Shown one piece after another: positions 4,800 through 16,141 of a DNA stretch of 32,000 nt. A model generated the notes under the pieces. It was given only the letters and a program-made list of their open reading frames with translations. It was not told the DNA's origin and ran no database searches. Numbering within the stretch: the stretch's first letter is position 1; each line of letters opens with the position of its first letter. The translations under genes and the position numbers were made by a program. Where the stretch lies: the NCBI RefSeq assembly GCF_000014785.1, contig NC_008340.1:3240001-3272000 (forward strand). The letters are read 5' to 3'. This stretch comes from Alkalilimnicola ehrlichii MLHE-1 (GTDB taxonomy: Bacteria; Pseudomonadota; Gammaproteobacteria; Nitrococcales; Halorhodospiraceae).

Positions 4800-5747
4800 A
4801 TGGCCCGCTATCGCTATCCGAAGATCCCGGAATCAGAGATCACCCCGGAACCGCTCTACCGGGCCCGGCGCCGGTTTTTCCGCCAGGGCGTCGGCTTGGC
4901 CGTCGCGGCCGCGGCACCGGGGCTGCTGCTGCGCCCGGCCGCCGCCTGGCAGGGGGCTCTGGACGAGGCCCCCGGCAGCGGGCTGTCCACCGACGAACCG
5001 CTGACGAGCCTGGATGACATCACCTCCTACAACAACTTCTACGAGCTGGGCACGCGCAAGCGCGACCCCTCGGACTGGGCCCATCAGCTCCAGACCGACC
5101 CCTGGACCCTGAGTATAGAAGGCGAGGTGAATAAGCCAGGGGAATTCGACCTGAGCGATGTCATCCGGCCGGATGAACTGGAGCAGCGCATCTACCGCCT
5201 GCGCTGCGTGGAGGCCTGGTCCATGGTGATCCCCTGGGTCGGCTTCGAGCTGCGTAAGCTGCTGGAGCGCCACGAGCCCACCGACCGCGCCAAGTACGTG
5301 GTCTTCGAGTCCATCCACGACCCGGACAACCTGCGCGGCCAACGTCGCGGCATCATCGACTGGCCCTACCGTGAGGGGCTGCGCATGGATGAGGCGATGC
5401 ACCCGCTCACCCTGCTGGCGGTGGGGCTGTACGGCAAGCCCATGCCCAACCAGAACGGCGCGCCCATCCGTCTGGTGGTGCCCTGGAAGTATGGCTTCAA
5501 GAGCATCAAGTCCATCGTGCGCATCCGCCTGCAGGAGGAACGTCCGGTCAGCGCCTGGGAGGCGATGTCACCGGAGGAGTACGGCTTCTACGCCAACGTC
5601 AACCCCCACGTCGACCACCCCCGCTGGTCGCAGGCTCGGGAGCGCCGGATCGGGGAACCGGGGCGGCGGGAGACCCTGATGTTCAACGGCTACGAGGAGG
5701 AGGTCGCCCACCTTTACGAGGGCATGGACCTGGAAAAACACTTCTGA
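4800..5747 (+). CDS. msrP: protein-methionine-sulfoxide reductase catalytic subunit MsrP (YedY), molybdopterin, Tat-exported
   Basis: Collinear with E. coli MsrP as I recall it ([57 protein letters not shown]). Tat motif [11 protein letters not shown] at 4800; the track start at 4764 is a TTG. Confidence 0.9.
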
Positions 5748-8548: not shown

Positions 8549-11287
8549 TCAATGGGCCCCCTCCCAGTCGTCGGCCACGCCCACATCGACCTCCAGCGGC
8601 ACGGCCAGTTCCCCGGCCGCCTGCATGCGCTCGCGCAGCCCCTCCGCCACCGCCGGCACGTCCGCTGCCGGCACCTCCAGCACCAGTTCGTCGTGGACCT
8701 GCATGACCATACGCGCCTTGGAATGCGCCTCCGTCAGCCAGGCGTCCACCGCCACCATGGCGCGCTTGATGAGATCGGCCGCGGTGCCCTGCATCGGCGC
8801 ATTGATGGCGGTGCGCTCGGCATACTCCCGGCGCTGGCGGTTGCGGGCATTGATCTCGGGCAGGTAGAGCCGGCGACCGAACAGCGTCTCCACGTAACCG
8901 CGTTCACGGGCCTCGGCACGGGTGCGGTCCATGTACTCTTTGACCCCGGGGTAGCGCTCAAAATAGCGGTCCACGTAGGCCTGGGCCTCGCCGCGCTCGA
9001 TGCCCAGCTGCCGGGCCAGGCCGTAGGCGGACATGCCGTAGATCAGACCAAAGTTGATGGCCTTGGCCGCCCGCCGCTGCTCGCCGCCCACCCGTTCGGG
9101 TGCGAGACCGAAGACCTCGGCGGCGGTGGCGCTGTGGATGTCCGCACCCTCGGCGAACGCTTGGCGCAGCCCCTCATCCCCCGACAGGTGGGCCATGATC
9201 CGCAGCTCCACCTGGGAGTAGTCCGCCGCCAGCAGCTTGCAGCCGGGCTCGGCGACGAAGGCCTTGCGGATGCGCCGGCCCTCGGCGGTACGCACCGGGA
9301 TGTTCTGCAGGTTGGGATCGGAGCTGGACAGCCGCCCGGTGGCGGCCACCGCCTGATGATAGCTGGTGTGCACCCGGCCGGTCTTCGGGTGGATCAGCCG
9401 CGGCAGCTTGTCGGTGTAGGTGGTCTTCAGCTTGGCCAGACTGCGGTAAGCCAGGATCAACCGCGGCAGCTCGTAACCGCGTGCCGCCAGCTCCTCGAGC
9501 ACCGACTCGGCGGTGGAGGGCGCCCCCTTGGGGGTCTTCTGCAGCACCGGCAGGCCCATGCGTTCGAACAGGATCTCCTGAATCTGCTTGGGGCTGGAGA
9601 GGTTGAAGGGTCCTTCCGCCTCCTCGTGGGCGCGTTGTTCCAACGCGGCCATGCCCTCGGCCAGTTCCGTACTCTGCTGCTCCAGCAGTGCTCGGTCCAC
9701 CTTCACCCCGTGACGCTCCATGCGCGAGAGCACCGGCAGCAACGGCATTTCGATAGCGTGGAACACCTGCACCAGCCGTCCCTCGGCCTCGAGCCTCGGA
9801 TAGAGCGTCTGGTGCAGACGCAGGGTGATATCGGCATCCTCCCCGGCATAGCGTGTGGCGGTCTCCACCGCCACCTGGGCGAAGGGGATCTGCTTGGCGC
9901 CCTTACCGCAGACATCCTCGTATTTCACGGTGGCACGGCCCAGGTACTTGAGGGCCAGGGAGTCCATATCGTGACGGCTGGCGGTGGAGTCCAGCACGTA
10001 GGACTCGAGCATGGTGTCGTAGGCCACACCCTCCAGGTGGATGTCGTAGCGGGCCAGCACGCTCATGTCGTACTTGAGGTTCTGCCCGACCTTGGCGCGG
10101 TCCGGGTCCTCGAGCAGCGGCTTGAGCGCGGCCAGCACCCGGTCGCGGTCGAGTTGCGTCGGGGTATCGGGGCCTTCATGGGCCAGCGGGACGTAGGCGG
10201 CCTCACCCGCCCCCACCGCCAGCGCCACCCCGACGATCTCGGCATCCATGTAGTTGAGGCTGCTGGTCTCCAGGTCGAAGGCGAACAGCTCGGCTGACTC
10301 CAGCCGGCGCAACCAGTCGTCGAAGGCATCCGCGTCGTCCACGGTGTGGTAGCGGGCGTCGTCACCCTCGCCGGCGCCACCGGCCGCGCCCGGCCCGGCC
10401 GGGGCCACCTCGCCGCCGCTGTCGCCGTCACCATTCAGCAGCTCGCGGAGCAGCCGGCGGAACTCATACCGCTGGTAGTACTCGCGCAGTCGCTCCACGT
10501 CCGATTCGCCGGGTTTCAGGTCCTCCGGGCGCTGGTCCAGGTCCAGGTCGCAGCGGATGGTGGCCAGGTCCTCGCTCAACGCCAGCTCGTCCAGGTGCGC
10601 GCGCAGGCTCTCCCCCACCTTGCCCTTGACCTCATCGGCGCGGGCCTTGAGGGCGTCCAGCGAGCCGAACTGATTGAGCCACTTGGCAGCGGTCTTGGGG
10701 CCGACGCGGGGGACACCGGGGATGTTGTCGGAGCTGTCCCCGACCAGGGCCAGGTAGTCGATGATCCGCTCCGGCGGCACGCCGAACTTCTCCTTCACCC
10801 CGGCCTCGTCCAGGCGGGTGTCGTTCATGGTATTGAGCAGGGTGACCTGCTCGTCCACCAGCTGGGCCATGTCCTTATCGCCGGTGGAGATGACCACCGG
10901 CTGACCGGCCTCAGCGGCCTGCCGGGCGAGGGTGCCGATGACGTCGTCGGCCTCCACGCCGGGCACCTCCAGCAGCGGCAGGCCCATGGCGCGGATAATG
11001 TCCTTCAGCGGCTGGATCTGGGCGCGCAACTCGTCCGGCATTGGCGGGCGGTGGGCCTTGTACTGATCGAACAGCTCGTCACGGAAGGTGCGCCCGGGGG
11101 CGTCGAAGACCACCGCGATCCGCTCCGGCCGGTAGTCGTCGAGCAGCTTGCGGACCATGTTGAGCACGCCGTACATGGCGCCGGTGGGTTCACCGTCTTT
11201 GTTGGTGAGCGGCGGCATGGCGTGGAAGGCCCGATAGAGGTAGCTGGAGCCGTCCACCAGAATCAGGGGCTTGCGGGCGTCAGACAT
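8549..11287 (-). CDS. polA: DNA polymerase I
   Basis: 912 aa from MSDARKPLILVDGSSYLYRAF (5' nuclease). Has the 3'-5' exo motif FDLETSSL and pol motifs DYSQVELR, RRAAKAINFGLIYG and QVHDELV. RBS AGGAGA lies 5 nt before the ATG at 11287. The 1266-aa track ORF is an upstream read-through artefact. Confidence 0.95.
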   Translation of the reverse strand: MSDARKPLILVDGSSYLYRAFHAMPPLTNKDGEPTGAMYGVLNMVRKLLDDYRPERIAVVFDAPGRTFRDELFDQYKAHRPPMPDELRAQIQPLKDIIRAMGLPLLEVPGVEADDVIGTLARQAAEAGQPVVISTGDKDMAQLVDEQVTLLNTMNDTRLDEAGVKEKFGVPPERIIDYLALVGDSSDNIPGVPRVGPKTAAKWLNQFGSLDALKARADEVKGKVGESLRAHLDELALSEDLATIRCDLDLDQRPEDLKPGESDVERLREYYQRYEFRRLLRELLNGDGDSGGEVAPAGPGAAGGAGEGDDARYHTVDDADAFDDWLRRLESAELFAFDLETSSLNYMDAEIVGVALAVGAGEAAYVPLAHEGPDTPTQLDRDRVLAALKPLLEDPDRAKVGQNLKYDMSVLARYDIHLEGVAYDTMLESYVLDSTASRHDMDSLALKYLGRATVKYEDVCGKGAKQIPFAQVAVETATRYAGEDADITLRLHQTLYPRLEAEGRLVQVFHAIEMPLLPVLSRMERHGVKVDRALLEQQSTELAEGMAALEQRAHEEAEGPFNLSSPKQIQEILFERMGLPVLQKTPKGAPSTAESVLEELAARGYELPRLILAYRSLAKLKTTYTDKLPRLIHPKTGRVHTSYHQAVAATGRLSSSDPNLQNIPVRTAEGRRIRKAFVAEPGCKLLAADYSQVELRIMAHLSGDEGLRQAFAEGADIHSATAAEVFGLAPERVGGEQRRAAKAINFGLIYGMSAYGLARQLGIERGEAQAYVDRYFERYPGVKEYMDRTRAEARERGYVETLFGRRLYLPEINARNRQRREYAERTAINAPMQGTAADLIKRAMVAVDAWLTEAHSKARMVMQVHDELVLEVPAADVPAVAEGLRERMQAAGELAVPLEVDVGVADDWEGAH

Positions 11288-11321
11288 TAAGGTCTCCTGG
11301 CGAGTCAATCGGCACATTTCC

Positions 11322-11430
11322 GGGTCAGCGGGGTGTGGACGCGGGGGTGGGTGTTCCCGGGGGCCTTCGAGCGCGCACCCCTTCGGGGTGCCCGGGAACA
11401 CCCACCCCCGCGTCCACACCCCGCTGACCC
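11322..11430. repeat. 109-bp palindromic element: perfect 40-bp inverted arms and a 29-nt centre carrying the core GCGCACCCCTTCGGGGTGCCC
   Basis: Arms 11322-11361 and 11391-11430 are exact reverse complements, checked base by base. The core is at 11373-11393. Confidence 0.9.
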
Positions 11431-11539
11431 TGCCGTTGCCGGCAATGCTACCACCTCCCGGCCCGAATGGTGGCGGCATCCCACAGCGGGTCGCCACTGC
11501 GGTTATGATAGGGGGACACGCACCCGGCGCGGAGCAGCC

Positions 11540-12265
11540 ATGGACCAACACGAGCTCTTCGGTAACGGCAGCCTCAACCCGCTCAACGACTCCCTCATGA
11601 GCCGCGAGTCCTGGAAGATCTTCCAGATCATGGCGGAATTCGTCGAGGGCTTTGAGCGGCTGTCCCAGATCAAACCCTCGGTGAGCGTCTTCGGCTCCGC
11701 CCGTACGGCGCCGGATCACCCCTATTACAAGCTGGCCGAGGACCTCTCCCGGGCACTCTCCGACGCCGGCTTCTCGGTGGTCAGCGGTGGCGGGCCGGGC
11801 ATCATGGAGGCCGCCAACAAGGGCGCCCATGGGGGCAAGTCGCCCAGCATCGGGCTGAACATCCAGCTCCCCCACGAGCAGTCGGGCAACCCCTACCAGG
11901 ACATCAGCCTCAACTTCCGGCACTTCTTCAGCCGCAAGGTGATGTTCGTCAAGTACGCCTCCGCCTACGTGGTCCTGCCCGGCGGATTCGGCACCCTGGA
12001 CGAACTGGCCGAGATCCTCACCCTGGTGCAGACGGGGAAGACACGCCGCATCCCTATCATTCTGGTGTACAAACCCTACTGGCAGGGCCTGGTGGACTGG
12101 TTCCGCGACACCCTGGTGGCCGAGGGCGCCATCAACGCCGAGGACATGGACCTCTTCCAGGTGCTCGACGAGCCCACTGAGGTGGTGGACGCCATCTTCG
12201 CCCACTATGAGGACCGCGGTTTCGAACCCTCCCGCCGGGAGCGCGAGATGCTGCTGGACCTCTGA
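11540..12265 (+). CDS. LOG-family / TIGR00730 Rossmann-fold nucleotide-binding protein (nucleoside 5'-monophosphate phosphoribohydrolase-like)
   Basis: Motifs VSGGGPGIMEAANKGA and VVLPGGFGTLDELAEILTLVQT. ATG at 11540 (MDQHELFG); the track start at 11333 lies inside the palindrome. Confidence 0.8.
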   Translation: MDQHELFGNGSLNPLNDSLMSRESWKIFQIMAEFVEGFERLSQIKPSVSVFGSARTAPDHPYYKLAEDLSRALSDAGFSVVSGGGPGIMEAANKGAHGGKSPSIGLNIQLPHEQSGNPYQDISLNFRHFFSRKVMFVKYASAYVVLPGGFGTLDELAEILTLVQTGKTRRIPIILVYKPYWQGLVDWFRDTLVAEGAINAEDMDLFQVLDEPTEVVDAIFAHYEDRGFEPSRREREMLLDL

Positions 12266-12347
12266 CCATCCCGCCGGCATACGGCCGGGACACCCTGCCG
12301 GCACGAGGCCCGCAGCCCCATTCAGGACACACCGCGAGGAGCAGGAC

Positions 12348-12725
12348 ATGAACGCAGCCGCTATCCGCCCACGTCAGCGCCCGCCCACCCACCTCTTGCT
12401 TGCGCTGGGCCTGGGCACCGCCCTCGCCCTGGCAGGCCCCGTCAGTGGGGAGGAGGAGGGCCCGATTGTCACACCGCCGCCGGCGCCGGAGGAGCTCACC
12501 GAGGGCGAGCCGATCGAGCCCACGGTCCGCATCATCCGCCGGGAGTGGGCCACCATTGAGGAGTTCTCGATCCAGGGTCAGATCTACGCCGTGCGGATCA
12601 CGCCGGTGGTGGGCCCCCCCTACTACCTGATCGACACCGACGGCGACGGGGTGCTCAACCACCGGGCGGAGTACGACCCGCTGCGCGAGCCCAAGATCCA
12701 CCGCTGGGAACTGCTGCGCTGGTAG
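12348..12725 (+). CDS. small secreted conserved hypothetical protein (I recall this polA-linked family as DUF2782; unverified)
   Basis: ATG at 12348 after GAGGAG. Signal peptide ...LLLALGLGTALALAGPVSG, and the C-terminal block YAVRITPVVGPPYYLIDTDGDG. Confidence 0.6.
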   Translation: MNAAAIRPRQRPPTHLLLALGLGTALALAGPVSGEEEGPIVTPPPAPEELTEGEPIEPTVRIIRREWATIEEFSIQGQIYAVRITPVVGPPYYLIDTDGDGVLNHRAEYDPLREPKIHRWELLRW

Positions 12726-12740: not shown

Positions 12741-14918
12741 TCAGCCCACCAGCCTGAGGTTGGCGTAGGCAGCCACCAGCCACTTGGCCCCCGCCCGCGC
12801 GAACTGCACCTGGATCCGCGCCGAGGGCCCCTGCCCCTCGAGCCGCAACACCACCCCCTCGCCGAAACGGTCGTGGCGGACCCGGCTGCCGAGGGTGATC
12901 CCATCCACCGGCTCCGACTGCATGGCCGCGGCGGTGGCGCCGGGACGGGTCACCTTCATCCGCGCCCGCACCTCCTCGATATAATCGGCCGGGATCTCCT
13001 GGATAAAGCGGGACGGCATGCCGTAGTTGTCCATCCCGTGCAGCCGCCGCTTTTCGGCGTAGGCCAGGTACAGGCGCTCGCGGGCACGGGTGATCCCCAC
13101 GTAGGCGAGCCGTCGCTCCTCCTCCATGCGCCCGGGCTCCTCGGTGGACATCCGGTGCGGGAACAGCCCCTCTTCCAGCCCGACCAGAAAGACCACCGGG
13201 AACTCCAGGCCCTTGGCCGAGTGCAGGGTCATCAACTGCACGCAGGGCTGCCCCTCCTCCCCCTGGGCCTCGCCCGCCTCCAGCGCCGCGTGGGTGAGAA
13301 AGGCGGTGAGGGGGGTCAGCCCCTCGTCGCGCTCGTATTGTTGCTCGAAGTTGCGCGCCGCGGTCACCAGTTCGTCCAGGTTCTCCCGCCGGGCCTCGCC
13401 GCGGTCACTGCCGTCCGCCTCGGCGTCCCTGCGCAGCCCGCTGGCAACAATCACCCGATCCATCTGCTCGTGCAACGGCAGAGTCGCCGTCTCCTCCTCC
13501 AGCCGGTCCAGCAGCTGCAGGAAGCCCTGCACCGCATTGCCGGCGCGGGCACTGATGCCACCGGCCCGGATGATCCGGACGGCCGATTCCCACAGGCTCG
13601 CGTCGGCCGCCCGGGCCCCCTCGCGGATCTGATCCAGCGTGCGGTTGCCAATGCCCCGCCGGGGGGTATTGATCACCCGCTCGAAGGCGGCGTCATCGTG
13701 GCGGTTCATCAGCAGGCGCAGATAGGCCAGGGCATCGCGAATCTCGGCCCGGTCGAAGAAGCGCTGGCCGCCGTACACCCGGTAGGGCAGGCCGCGGGCC
13801 AGGAGGCTCTCCTCGAAGGCGCGGGACTGGGCGTTGGAGCGGTAGAGGATGGCGAAATCGTCACGGGCATAGCCCTCATCGAGCAGGGCGGCGATGCGGT
13901 CGACCACGTAACGGGCCTCGTCGGTCTCGTTGAAGGCGGCGTAAAGCTGGATCGGGTCACCCCGGCTGCCCTCGGTCCATAGGTTCTTGCCCATGCGCCC
14001 GCCGTTATGGCTGATCAGCGCGTTGGCGGCGTTGAGGATGGTCTCCGTGGAGCGGTAGTTCTGCTCCAGCCGGGTGATGCTCACCTCGCCGAACTCGCGG
14101 GCGTAGCGGTGGATGTTTTCCACCCGGGCCCCGCGCCAACCGTAGATGGACTGATCGTCATCGCCGACCACGAAGACATCGCTGTCCTCCCCGGCCAACT
14201 GCTGCAGCCAACGGTACTGCAACTGGTTGGTGTCCTGGAACTCGTCCACCAGCAGATGGCGGAAGCGGGCGCGGTAGTGGGCCAGCAGGTCGGGCCGGTC
14301 GCGGAGCAGCTCGAAGCTGCGCAACAGCAGCTCCGCGAAGTCCACCAGGCCGGAGCGACGGCAGGTCTGCTCGTAGGTCTGGTAGACCTGCCAGACGGCA
14401 AAGCGGAACGGTTCCCCGGCGTCCGCCTGGATGTCGGCGGGCCGCAGCCCCTCCTCCTTCCAGCCATTGAGCACGCCGCGCACCTGCCGGGGCGGATAGC
14501 GCTTCTCGTCGAGCTCCATGCCGCGCATCACCCGCTTGATCAGCCGGAGCTGGTCGTCGCTGTCGAGGATCTGGAAGGTCTCCGGTAGCCCGGCATCCGC
14601 TGCGTGCATGCGCAGCAGCCGGTGCGACAGGCCGTGGAAGGTGCCCACCCACATGCCGGCGGTGCGGATGCCGAGCAGCTCACCGATGCGGTGGCGCATC
14701 TCGGCGGCGGCCTTGTTGGTGAAGGTCACCGCCATGATGCCGAAGGGGGAGGCGCCCTCCACCCGCACCAGCCACGCCGCCCGGCGGGTGAGCACCCGGG
14801 TCTTGCCGCTGCCCGCACCGGCCAGCACCAGGGAACGGCCGAGCGCGGCGCAGACCGCCTCGCGCTGGGCGTCGTTGAGATCGGCTATCAGGTCGGAGAC
14901 GTCGGCTTCGGCTTCCAT
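12741..14918 (-). CDS. uvrD: DNA helicase II UvrD
   Basis: 725 aa from MEAEADVSDLIADLNDAQREAV. Walker A GAGSGKT, DEFQDTN, and a C-terminus GSRVRHDRFGEGVVL...KWLVAAYANL matching the E. coli UvrD tail. The 813-aa track ORF reads upstream through the palindrome. Confidence 0.92.
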   Translation of the reverse strand: MEAEADVSDLIADLNDAQREAVCAALGRSLVLAGAGSGKTRVLTRRAAWLVRVEGASPFGIMAVTFTNKAAAEMRHRIGELLGIRTAGMWVGTFHGLSHRLLRMHAADAGLPETFQILDSDDQLRLIKRVMRGMELDEKRYPPRQVRGVLNGWKEEGLRPADIQADAGEPFRFAVWQVYQTYEQTCRRSGLVDFAELLLRSFELLRDRPDLLAHYRARFRHLLVDEFQDTNQLQYRWLQQLAGEDSDVFVVGDDDQSIYGWRGARVENIHRYAREFGEVSITRLEQNYRSTETILNAANALISHNGGRMGKNLWTEGSRGDPIQLYAAFNETDEARYVVDRIAALLDEGYARDDFAILYRSNAQSRAFEESLLARGLPYRVYGGQRFFDRAEIRDALAYLRLLMNRHDDAAFERVINTPRRGIGNRTLDQIREGARAADASLWESAVRIIRAGGISARAGNAVQGFLQLLDRLEEETATLPLHEQMDRVIVASGLRRDAEADGSDRGEARRENLDELVTAARNFEQQYERDEGLTPLTAFLTHAALEAGEAQGEEGQPCVQLMTLHSAKGLEFPVVFLVGLEEGLFPHRMSTEEPGRMEEERRLAYVGITRARERLYLAYAEKRRLHGMDNYGMPSRFIQEIPADYIEEVRARMKVTRPGATAAAMQSEPVDGITLGSRVRHDRFGEGVVLRLEGQGPSARIQVQFARAGAKWLVAAYANLRLVG

Positions 14919-14959
14919 GGTTTCGGTCCGGTACAGAGGGTATAGAGTCGGCGGATGGG

Positions 14960-15176
14960 GGCGTTGCGGTGGGTCGGTGCCGGGGGGCGTGGTCCCGTCG
15001 GGCCTCCGATGGCGCACCCCTTCGGGGTGCCCTGCGCTACTCGGGAAAAATCGGCGCGCGTGAACTCGCTTCGCTCGAACAAGCACGCGCTTCATCCGAT
15101 TTTTCCCTGCGTTGCTCGGTGCGCCAAAGTCGGCCCGACGGGACCACGCCCCCCGGCACCGACCCACCGCAACGCC
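14960..15176. repeat. 217-bp compound palindromic element: perfect 45-bp inverted arms, the same 21-nt core, and nested inner inverted repeats
   Basis: Arms 14960-15004 and 15132-15176 are exact reverse complements, checked base by base. Core at 15012-15032. Inner IR GGGAAAAATCGG (15043-15054) / CCGATTTTTCCC (15096-15107). Innermost pair GCGCGTG (15056-15062) / CACGCGC (15084-15090). Confidence 0.9.
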
Positions 15177-15199
15177 GCTCACGGGCGATCAGGGGCCTG

Positions 15200-16141
15200 C
15201 TAACCGGCGGCCGCAGGCTCGATGGGGCGGGCCTGCTCCTGCACCACCCGGAGGTCACGGATGGCCGCCGCCACTGCCTCCAGGGTGCTGGCGCGGGCGG
15301 CCCCCTTGCGCCAGTAAAGCCCGATGGTACGGGTAGGGACCGGCGGGGAAAAGGGCAGCAGCTTGACCGCCGACTGGTTGGGGATCTCGCAACCGGCCTG
15401 TCCGGCCAGACGCGGGAGCAGGGTCATTCCCACGCCGGCCGCCACCATCTGGCGCAGGGTCTCCAGGCTGGTGGCCCGGAAACAGCTGGTGCCGCCGGCA
15501 TCGCCGGCCAACTGGCAGACCTCCAACGCCTGATCGCGCAGGCAGTGCCCCTCCTCCAGCAGCAGCAGCTCATCCTCCGGCAGGGCCTCCGGACGCGGTG
15601 CACGCTTCGCCTCGGCCAGGGCATGATCGGCAGGCAGGGCCAGCACGAAGGGCTCTTCGAAGACCGCCACCGAGGCCAGGTCATCGCCCGCCACCGGCAT
15701 GGCCATCAGCGCCCCGTCCAGCTCCCCCTTGCGCAGCCGCTCCACCAGCAGGGCGGTGCGCTCCTCGTAGAGCAGCATGCGCAAGCGCGGCCAGGCCTCA
15801 GTGGCGGTGGCCACCAAGTGGGGCAACAGATAGGGGGCGAGGGTGGGGATGGCCCCGAGGCGCAGCTCCCCGGTCATGGGCTCGGCGGCCGCCCGACAGA
15901 GTTCGACGATGTCGTCCACTTGGTTGAGGACCGCCCGGGCCCGTGCCACCACCTCCTCGCCGGTGGGGGTGAGCAGGACCTGGCGGGTACCGCGCTCCAC
16001 CAATTGCACCCCCAGGTACTCCTCCAGCTTCTTGACCTGGGCGCTGAGGGTGGGCTGGCTGACAAAACAGGCCTTGGCGGCGCGGCCAAAGTGGCGCTGG
16101 TCGCCCACGGCGACCAGATAACGCAAGTCCCTGAGGTTCAA
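15200..16141 (-). CDS. oxyR: LysR-family hydrogen peroxide sensor OxyR
   Basis: MNLRDLRYLVAV...FVSQPTLSAQVKKLE aligns with E. coli OxyR from residue 1. Redox cysteine context EEGHCLRDQAL plus a second Cys, and FRATSLETLRQMVAAGVG. The start codon is TTG at 16141-16139. Confidence 0.85.
   Translation of the reverse strand: MNLRDLRYLVAVGDQRHFGRAAKACFVSQPTLSAQVKKLEEYLGVQLVERGTRQVLLTPTGEEVVARARAVLNQVDDIVELCRAAAEPMTGELRLGAIPTLAPYLLPHLVATATEAWPRLRMLLYEERTALLVERLRKGELDGALMAMPVAGDDLASVAVFEEPFVLALPADHALAEAKRAPRPEALPEDELLLLEEGHCLRDQALEVCQLAGDAGGTSCFRATSLETLRQMVAAGVGMTLLPRLAGQAGCEIPNQSAVKLLPFSPPVPTRTIGLYWRKGAARASTLEAVAAAIRDLRVVQEQARPIEPAAAG

Follow-up and report, generated by a model that had tools for sequence, protein, structure and literature searches.

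A palindrome between oxyR and uvrD of Alkalilimnicola ehrlichii belongs to a dispersed repeat family with a conserved core and site-specific arms

REP, BIME and REPIN elements are interspersed, intergenic, non-coding and hairpin-forming sequences that occur in many copies per genome without target-site duplication, can sit in operons and show presence/absence polymorphism. REPINs are REP doublets which form hairpins and are mobilized by RAYT transposases. The palindromes of REPs and REPINs bear a GTAG/CGTC tag (PMC3733652). Correia and ERIC/IRU elements are palindromic repeats of 100-250 nt, located between or within operons, whose transcripts fold as long duplexes that can be cleaved by RNase III or RNase E (PMC10969869). 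Classical MITEs, i.e., transposable elements that are miniature and carry inverted repeats, share terminal inverted repeats between copies and usually have target-site duplications. In this study, we analyzed a compound palindrome located between oxyR and uvrD in a 32,000-nt stretch of Alkalilimnicola ehrlichii MLHE-1 (NC_008340.1, positions 3,240,001 to 3,272,000; this whole stretch is hereafter the window, and coordinates refer to it). We found that it is a copy of a repeat family which behaves like REP, REPIN or MITE elements but lacks those of their defining features that we tested, i.e., arms or terminal repeats that are conserved between copies, and duplication of the target site.

The likeness to REPs and REPINs lies in the multi-copy, extragenic and dispersed nature of the family, and a comparison with REP/BIME elements in the original prediction therefore held in one respect, as the palindrome is indeed a copy of an interspersed intergenic palindromic repeat. 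However, the arms are the conserved family sequence in REPs and REPINs, whereas here they were unique to each site and it was the 115-nt center with its invariant tip that was conserved. No GTAG/CGTC tag was evident at the foot when the arm ends were read, no pattern search having been run. In contrast with classical MITEs, the family had neither shared terminal inverted repeats nor target-site duplications, and its arms changed at approximately the neutral rate while their complementarity was kept perfect; on the other hand, it showed the presence/absence polymorphism at orthologous sites that is known for MITEs, with an oxyR-uvrD spacer of 71 nt in one relative (L198) against 281-283 nt where the element was present (281 nt in the window). 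An architecture with a family-conserved center and locus-private inverted repeats is unusual, and is the reverse of that of REP, REPIN and MITE elements.

The outer arms of the oxyR-uvrD element matched as reverse complements at 45 of 45 positions, which confirmed the original prediction when recomputed, and a repeat search prolonged this pairing to 59 nt (14960-15018 with 15118-15176; 93%, four mismatches). All three nested pairings claimed for the center were present as well, except that the partner of GGCGCACC lay at 15118-15125, one base away from the earlier 15119-26. Folding of each strand was predicted at approximately -187 kcal/mol, with z scores of -13.7 and -12.1, and none of 200 shuffles was equally stable, so that the stability was far beyond chance in this window of ~67-70% GC. 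The element is not an assembly error, because it was also present in an independent complete genome (CP184336.1) and because short-read contigs from three more samples stopped within its arm.

Nine full copies of the family were recovered, comprising the oxyR-uvrD copy of the window (copy A), two from a syntenic 21 kb of the sister genome CP184336.1 (L196), whose OxyR was 98% identical to that of the window, and six from metagenome-assembled genomes (MAGs). A core of ~115 nt was common to all nine (nhmmer E = 1e-29 to 1e-35). On the motif strand it consisted, in order, of the stem P1 (GGCGCACC / GGTGCGCC), for which H1 is an alternative side hairpin, of sequence repeated directly (CCCTGCGCTRCTCG ... 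CTGYGYTGCTCGG) that faces itself across the next stem, the stem P2, the apical sequence GAACTCGCTTCGCTCGAACA, and an unpaired AAAG at the 3' arm junction. Unpaired AAAG, GAAAG or AAAT was found at this position in every full copy and also in a distant relative (L111). P2 was GGGAAAAATCGG/CCGATTTTTCCC in Alkalilimnicola and CCCGAAAGGGGG/CCCCCTTTCGGG in the MAGs, and one MAG copy (L058) added a compensated C-G to T-A change relative to another (L051). The first half of the direct repeat was conserved in all copies, with one compensated A-U / G-C pair between clades in the RNAalifold pairing. Column-wise covariation on the MAFFT alignment was dropped, as the P2 stems of the two clades fell two columns out of register, and complementarity was assessed copy by copy instead. 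Cores were 96-99% identical inside each of the two clades, the Alkalilimnicola pair and the MAG group, and less alike between them.

The arms behaved quite differently from the core. In the nine copies they were 35-59 nt long with 0-1 mismatch each, amounting to one or two mismatches in ~430 arm base pairs, and their sequences could not be aligned between sites except for the proximal ~15-25 nt. L072 and L058 represent the same site in two species whose flanking genes differed at ~25% of third codon positions. Their cores differed at 5 of 118 positions (4%), whereas 10 of 35 alignable arm positions differed (29%), each change being matched in the other arm. This pattern indicated either purifying selection on the core or its renewal from other copies, and an arm sequence that drifts at an approximately neutral rate with its complementarity kept perfect. 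Between the window and L196, where four-fold sites differed by 3.5-11%, the arms differed at 3 of 170 bases: a single C to T transition in the right arm was the sole arm difference at the oxyR-uvrD site, and one compensated pair (T/A to C/G) was found at the second site described below. The two L196 cores were identical over their shared length, and that at the oxyR-uvrD site (A') differed from copy A by four clustered bases; these observations are suggestive of exchange between copies, and a single event may explain them. The family thus offers a natural case of concerted arm evolution, in which palindrome correction and growth at the DNA level can be measured in wild genomes, and it raises the question of how the carrier bacteria tolerate palindromes of 200-240 bp.

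A search for repeats over the whole window revealed a second perfect palindrome (copy B), with 40/40 arms and a 29-nt center, which separates two divergently transcribed genes, polA (start codon ATG at 11287 on the minus strand) and one of the LOG family (ATG at 11540 on the plus strand). It shared 52 nt with copy A at 79% identity, including the hairpin GCGCACCCCTTCGGGGTGC. The syntenic region of L196 contained full copies at both the oxyR-uvrD (A') and the polA/LOG (B') sites, in opposite orientations. Since B' was full-length with the same arms as copy B, the latter must be a derivative from which ~100 nt of core were deleted. In addition, the center remnant of copy B was inverted relative to B', i.e., it had been flipped between identical arms, and this flip indicated that the arms do interact.

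With regard to the oxyR-uvrD spacer in relatives, for which the original prediction had proposed a comparison, the element was kept in three related genomes and missing from L198 (84% OxyR identity), in which oxyR and uvrD lay 71 nt apart. In a 90%-identity relative (L199), the short-read contigs broke off within a slightly diverged left arm, and a homologue search with the UvrD N-terminus for the other arm of this relative returned only matches of <=69% identity. The oxyR-bearing short-read (Logan) contigs L001, L197 and L199-L201 all covered 27-34 nt of the left arm and then ended; de Bruijn short-read assemblies are broken by the element. When a genome collection (one genome per species) was scanned with the H1 19-mer, an uncultured MAG of the Ectothiorhodospiraceae yielded five copies and a MAG related to it a sixth, and family members were found only among the Ectothiorhodospiraceae and Pseudomonadota MAG matches. 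The other H1 matches, such as those in Pseudanabaena and Blastocatellia, were mostly unrelated UUCG-type hairpins and were set aside.

All copies were intergenic, with two in the 32 kb of the window, two in L196 and two within 6.4 kb in one MAG sequence (L075). They lay between tandem genes, between divergent genes (polA/LOG and apparently L074) and between convergent genes (L051, L072 and L058). At the three convergent sites the stop codons of the neighbor genes fell within the palindrome, and in L051 and L072 it reached and took in both flanking TGA stop codons. Neither the 12 nt beyond each copy's arms nor the edges of a compact variant with seven different flanks showed a direct repeat that might represent a target-site duplication, and BLAST of the element against plasmids yielded no match. 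The family was polymorphic for presence and absence, for deletion and for flip.

The explanation that we favor, with roughly even confidence, is that the oxyR-uvrD element belongs to an interspersed, palindromic and non-autonomous DNA repeat, in which templated correction from one arm to the other maintains perfect complementarity. Selection would act on the ~115-nt core together with some 15-25 bp of the proximal stem, and the core is predicted to fold as an imperfect hairpin with the invariant tip AACTCGCTTCGCTCGAACA. Gain, loss, deletion and flipping of copies take place at intergenic sites whatever the orientation of the genes, and the long outer arms are a property of the site rather than of the family. 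Once a hairpin is in place, template switching within it at replication (quasi-palindrome correction) or arm-to-arm gene conversion could copy each new arm mutation to the opposite arm, or revert the mutation. Copying across the stem base could let the palindrome grow outward into neutral flank until a constraint is reached, such as a stop codon, a ribosome-binding site or a promoter. The invariant tip would probably be the contact for a trans-acting protein on single-stranded or extruded DNA.

Both proposed routes have parallels. Quasi-palindrome correction by intramolecular template switching was reportedly described by Ripley in 1982 and by the Lovett laboratory, and the palindromes of the human Y chromosome undergo arm-to-arm gene conversion. 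These are general mutational processes and not element families, and they provide a DNA-level route to arms that are identical yet drifting, as in the 10 of 35 compensated changes. We infer from this pattern that such processes operate here; the extension of the arms, the mobility in trans and the role of the tip are proposals as well. The mismatches were too few for stepwise compensatory selection and wobble pairs were not tolerated, which points to a templated process at the DNA level such as template switching or arm-to-arm conversion. A wobble test on 43 family hairpins gave 29 and 30 G.U-type mismatches for the two strands, i.e., no excess on either. Orientation independence, the flip, the perfect arms and the absence of a detectable promoter or terminator made a DNA-level element more likely than either a gene for an RNA or a signal dedicated to the mRNA, although RNA-level consequences are expected wherever a copy is transcribed.

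Several points weigh against this explanation. First, the outer ends are not conserved, unlike those of any classical MITE, and target-site duplication was absent at the copies examined. Second, the strong purifying selection that the core shows when orthologous sites are compared (4% against ~25%) could mean a function beneficial to the host and not selfish persistence. Third, a tip that is invariant across phyla fits poorly with a partner such as a fast-evolving transposase. Fourth, homogenization within a genome rests on the one cluster of four linked differences. Finally, the analysis covered 32 kb of the source genome, and the sole empty site (L198) was too diverged to align: its spacer gave no significant alignment to the arms and flanks that would indicate whether one arm is ancestral and derives from pre-existing flank.

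Table 1. Positions in the window of the two palindromic elements, their parts and the genes flanking the oxyR-uvrD copy
Feature	Position	Strand	Remarks
Outer arm, left, 45 nt	14960..15004		Site-specific; perfect complement of 15132-15176; same in sister genome L196, slightly diverged in L199
Left junction internal loop TCCGAT	15005..15010	+	Between arm and P1 stem
Conserved core, ~115 nt	15011..15125	+	Common to all nine full copies
P1 5' half GGCGCACC	15011..15018	+	Pairs with 15118-15125; overlaps alternative hairpin H1
H1 side hairpin GCACCCC-TTC-GGGGTGC	15014..15030	+	Sole core piece left in truncated copy B
DR1 (direct repeat) CCCTGCGCTACTCGG	15030..15044	+	Direct repeat of DR2; faces DR2 across P2 stem as internal loop / imperfect helix
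P2 5' half GGGAAAAATCGG	15043..15054	+	Pairs with 15096-15107; CCCGAAAGGGGG in MAG copies, with matching partner
P3 5' half GCGCGTG	15056..15062	+	Pairs with 15084-15090; not conserved in MAG copies
Apical motif AACTCGCTTCGCTCGAACA	15063..15081	+	Minus strand TGTTCGAGCGAAGCGAGTT, containing AGCG-A-AGCG
P3 3' half CACGCGC	15084..15090	+	
P2 3' half CCGATTTTTCCC	15096..15107	+	
DR2 CCCTGCGTTGCTCGG	15105..15119	+	
P1 3' half GGTGCGCC	15118..15125	+	
Right junction internal loop AAAGTC	15126..15131	+	
Outer arm, right, 45 nt	15132..15176		Perfect complement of 14960-15004
Copy B, second family copy	11322..11430		Arms 11322-11361 / 11391-11430, 40/40; 29-nt remnant keeps H1 only
LysR-family OxyR-like regulator, upstream gene	15200..16141	-	HTH_1 + LysR_substrate; homologues named OxyR or hydrogen-peroxide-inducible genes activator
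uvrD, downstream gene	12741..14918	-	Identified as UvrD; identical start called in sister genome

The tip of the hairpin was distributed far more widely than the core as a whole. We scanned metagenome contigs with the 18-nt tip motif and then applied nhmmer and a test of flanking complementarity. The apical motif AACTCGCTNCGCTCRAACA was also present at the tips of long, locus-specific hairpins in metagenome and prophage contigs with GC contents of 31-77%, and 22 of its 123 contig occurrences lay at the tip of significantly complementary, locus-specific arms. Pure chance as the source of these matches was countered by the two tests, about a fifth of the matches being hairpin elements. A degenerate scan of viral contigs with AACTCGCTNCGCTCRRACA gave >120 matches, about 30 of which were hairpin-tipped; a Spiroplasma-like viral group carried the motif inside an open reading frame (ORF) and was discarded as irrelevant. 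Two relatives (L111 and L176) repeated the whole plan of the core, with a P1-like stem, an AAAG bulge, direct repeats in an internal loop, an A/T-rich P2 and the tip, and on a Ralstonia megaplasmid and prophage-like contigs there was a variant in which the tip was unchanged and the stems were fully compensated. This 19-nt motif was nearly invariant on hairpins of genomes and prophages from 31% to 77% GC, and it may connect to primosome or single-strand-origin signals.

A compact variant of ~170 nt had the same sequence within at least seven different flanks (L091, L108, L138, L175, L167, L089 and L133). It consisted of an A/T hairpin followed by CAAAAGATC and then by a long hairpin with the tip motif, and ~40-90 nt outside it the flanks resembled Tn3-family terminal repeats (AACTCACGTTAA), which suggests that the variant may be nested in another miniature element. 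In a P2-like prophage (L212, 6161-6421), a variant was located between the head-completion (gpL-like) and small-terminase (gpM-like) genes, i.e., within the late operon and apparently without disrupting it; BLAST of this prophage variant against phages and plasmids gave no match. A tally from ORF lists revealed no orientation bias of the family hairpins relative to neighboring genes. The neighbors of distant family members were ordinary-looking housekeeping ORFs, with no shared partner noticed when the translations were read and no profile search run. Rfam 15 gave nothing at the gathering threshold for the window and 10 related loci, and permissive scans (12 related loci in all) gave only spurious GC-rich miRNA-precursor matches well below threshold. 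For the tip motif, and for repeats of Alkalilimnicola or Ectothiorhodospiraceae, nothing relevant was found in the full-text literature.

Some occurrences of the motif were of another kind. In L208 (2001-2024) it was coding sequence, specifying ...IASLEQSL... of a LysR-type regulator; coding matches of this type, of which this one was checked, probably account for part of the non-hairpin matches. In L100 (7269-9360; also L076, L110 and L092), about nine same-strand copies of GA.ACTCGCTTCGCTCG(G/A)ACAGGCGA were spread over ~2 kb of C/A-rich non-coding DNA without flanking hairpin arms, a different use of the tip motif. In the Acinetobacter plasmid pXBB1-3 (L205, 1800-2024), repM and a MobQ relaxase gene flanked four unstructured, iteron-like copies of TCGCTNCGCTC(A/G)A. 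Geobacillus plasmids (L202) had one copy just past a small hairpin, upstream of an apparent MOBQ-type relaxase gene that was recognized from its translated N-terminus (the record is typed MOBQ, and the gene is absent from the annotation table). An oriT, considered because of the MobQ relaxases of the Geobacillus and Acinetobacter plasmids, was rejected, the occurrences being unstructured iteron-like TCGCTNCGCTC repeats and not hairpins. In a Blastocatellia MAG (L019, L036, L052 and L056), a repeated small hairpin, CCGGGGGTCG-TCGTCGCTTCGCTCC-TCGACCCCCGG, carried in its loop the motif's central CGCTTCGCTC and, judging from this resemblance, may be a distant relative of the family.

In an alternative that we consider unlikely, the apical loop would serve as a signal for single-strand initiation, of the type known from phiX174 or ColE1 (a PriA primosome assembly site, pas, or a signal like a single-strand origin, sso), and would recruit a universally conserved host priming or restart protein. 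AGCG-N-AGCG would then be shown on a fork-like stem once the palindrome is single-stranded or extruded, and could be used as host restart or priming points or for synthesis of the complementary strand of the element, which is compatible with mobility. A universally conserved host protein would also account for the invariance of the loop across phyla. The known signals are likewise hairpin-forming and orientation-specific on single-stranded DNA, and the complement of the tip, which reads GAGCG-N-AGCGAG, appeared to have AGCG-N-AGCG in common with phiX174 and ColE1, or TAGCGAGTT in common with the CS-6 region of pT181. For phiX174 (5386 nt) the motif was predicted before the search; AGCG-N-AGCG occurred once (0.04 expected per strand), at position 2357 of the viral strand and thus within the F-G spacer. 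This spacer is said to contain the n'/PriA recognition hairpin, as Shlomai and Kornberg reportedly described in 1980. The pas is described only as a fork-like hairpin at the complementary-strand origin in PMC5778457. For ColE1/pMB1, the ori-proximal GACCGAGCGCAGCGAGTCAG matched at 14 of 15 bases and was present in 3648 plasmid records. It falls in the region assigned to ssiA (n'-pas), which is located just downstream of the ColE1 RNA/DNA switch (PMC3167613, PMC5935869). On the pBR322-like plasmid pAK51 (L332), AGCG-N-AGCG also occurred beyond the ori-proximal site, at 5619 and 4414 on the same strand (0.1 expected), one of these sites being opposite tet(C). For pT181, TTAGCGAGTT of the ssoA CS-6 region had a 9-nt identity with the loop variant GCGTAGCGAGTT.

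On the other hand, these matches covered 9-15 nt only and the definition of the motif was partly post hoc, and known initiation signals belong as single copies to the replicons of phages or plasmids whereas the family here is a chromosomal repeat. The ColE1 motif was located in a predicted stem and not in a loop, and an 81-nt piece around it folded no better than shuffles. The ssoA origin is a hairpin of ~160 nt whose stem has an RSB box (TTATGCCGAGAAAATTT) and whose loop has CS-6, TAGCGT/A (PMC4598088, PMC5703833). No RSB box was seen on reading the element, for which no pattern search was run, and the loop of the window reads GAAGCGA, not TAGCGA, TAGCGAGTT being present only in variants with A at the variable position. 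PriA is now held to recognize a fork-like structure and not a sequence (PMC5778457), and the opposite orientations of the two L196 copies gave no evident fixed relation to the direction of replication. A broader conjecture, equally doubtful to us, is that the chromosomal hairpins of several phyla display a compact AGCG-N-AGCG initiation-site motif and might thus be dispersed, possibly mobile PriA or priming signals, with the Ectothiorhodospiraceae arms growing and self-correcting by template switching. If such a reading were true, it would tie a plasmid and phage replication signal of the 1980s to a widespread, unannotated class of bacterial repeats, and would provide a natural system for palindrome growth and correction.

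The original prediction had proposed, for the case of co-transcription, that the palindrome is an intercistronic structure of the oxyR-uvrD pair that could terminate, insulate, process or stabilize the transcript; in the reading weighed here, this cis-acting RNA structure (processed by RNase III) would be kept at this site for that purpose. We found the gene identities and strands to be as described, with the compound palindrome occupying the same-strand spacer and leaving 41 nt up to the uvrD ATG and 23 nt up to the oxyR stop. A scan of 14700-15400, including the stretch between the element and uvrD, detected no sigma70-like promoter, in agreement with the earlier observation; a consensus scan is weak evidence in a 69% GC genome, however, and uvrD may have its own promoter. 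If oxyR and uvrD are co-transcribed, the mRNA must by prediction hold a ~59-bp near-perfect duplex (part of the -187 kcal/mol fold), a plausible RNase III substrate or roadblock in a read-through transcript. There is precedent in the Correia elements, which RNase III cuts at their inverted repeats, and in the ERIC elements, which alter mRNA stability (PMC10969869), and the element is kept at oxyR-uvrD in the three related genomes. Nevertheless, a device dedicated to this gene pair was not borne out, as L198 has the same pair without the element and other family copies lie between divergent and convergent genes in both orientations. Nor did termination hold. The minus-strand sequence following the arm, CCCATCCGCC, has no U-tract, so the element is not an intrinsic terminator, and no terminator-like site was detected on either strand of 14700-15400. 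Furthermore, the arms were perfectly complementary at the DNA level with essentially no wobble-type mismatches, which argues for a DNA-level process rather than selection on RNA structure. We thus regard retention of the element for an RNA function at this site as distinctly improbable, and any effects on the oxyR-uvrD transcript as possible side effects of the repeat.

A small structured RNA gene, in which the core would be the RNA, the arms would be processing stems like the RNase III stems flanking rRNAs, and the tip would pair with or bind a conserved partner, appeared highly improbable. The strong purifying selection on the core (4% vs ~25% neutral) and the inner stems compensated between clades, including the change in L058, would agree with it. 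So would the A-rich tract that adjoins the hairpin on the motif strand in many distant relatives, which corresponds on the opposite strand to a U-rich tract that follows the hairpin, and the more stable folding of the complementary strand (opposite the motif) in 35 of 42 elements. However, this folding advantage as a sign of a functional RNA strand was undercut by the equal G.U counts given above; without an excess on either strand, the asymmetry reflects purine-rich unpaired regions and not wobble pairing. No Rfam family was found at gathering or permissive thresholds and no promoter or terminator in 14700-15400, orientation relative to neighboring genes showed no preference, the compact variants stop exactly at the hairpin base and leave no room for a promoter, and the center can flip between the arms. 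An ECF-sigma promoter, rrn boxA, XerCD/dif, integron attC, retron msd and IS110 bridge RNA, all weighed from the sequence, did not fit.

Practical consequences of these elements are broken short-read assemblies, spurious N-terminal extensions of ORFs and a predicted long duplex within oxyR-uvrD and other transcripts. Palindromic elements of this kind could mislead gene callers in the choice of start codons. In the window, a minus-strand ORF of 813 aa (12741-15182) reads through the oxyR-uvrD palindrome and lengthens uvrD by 88 codons, and another of 1266 aa (8549-12349, minus strand) reads through the polA/LOG palindrome and lengthens polA by 354 codons.

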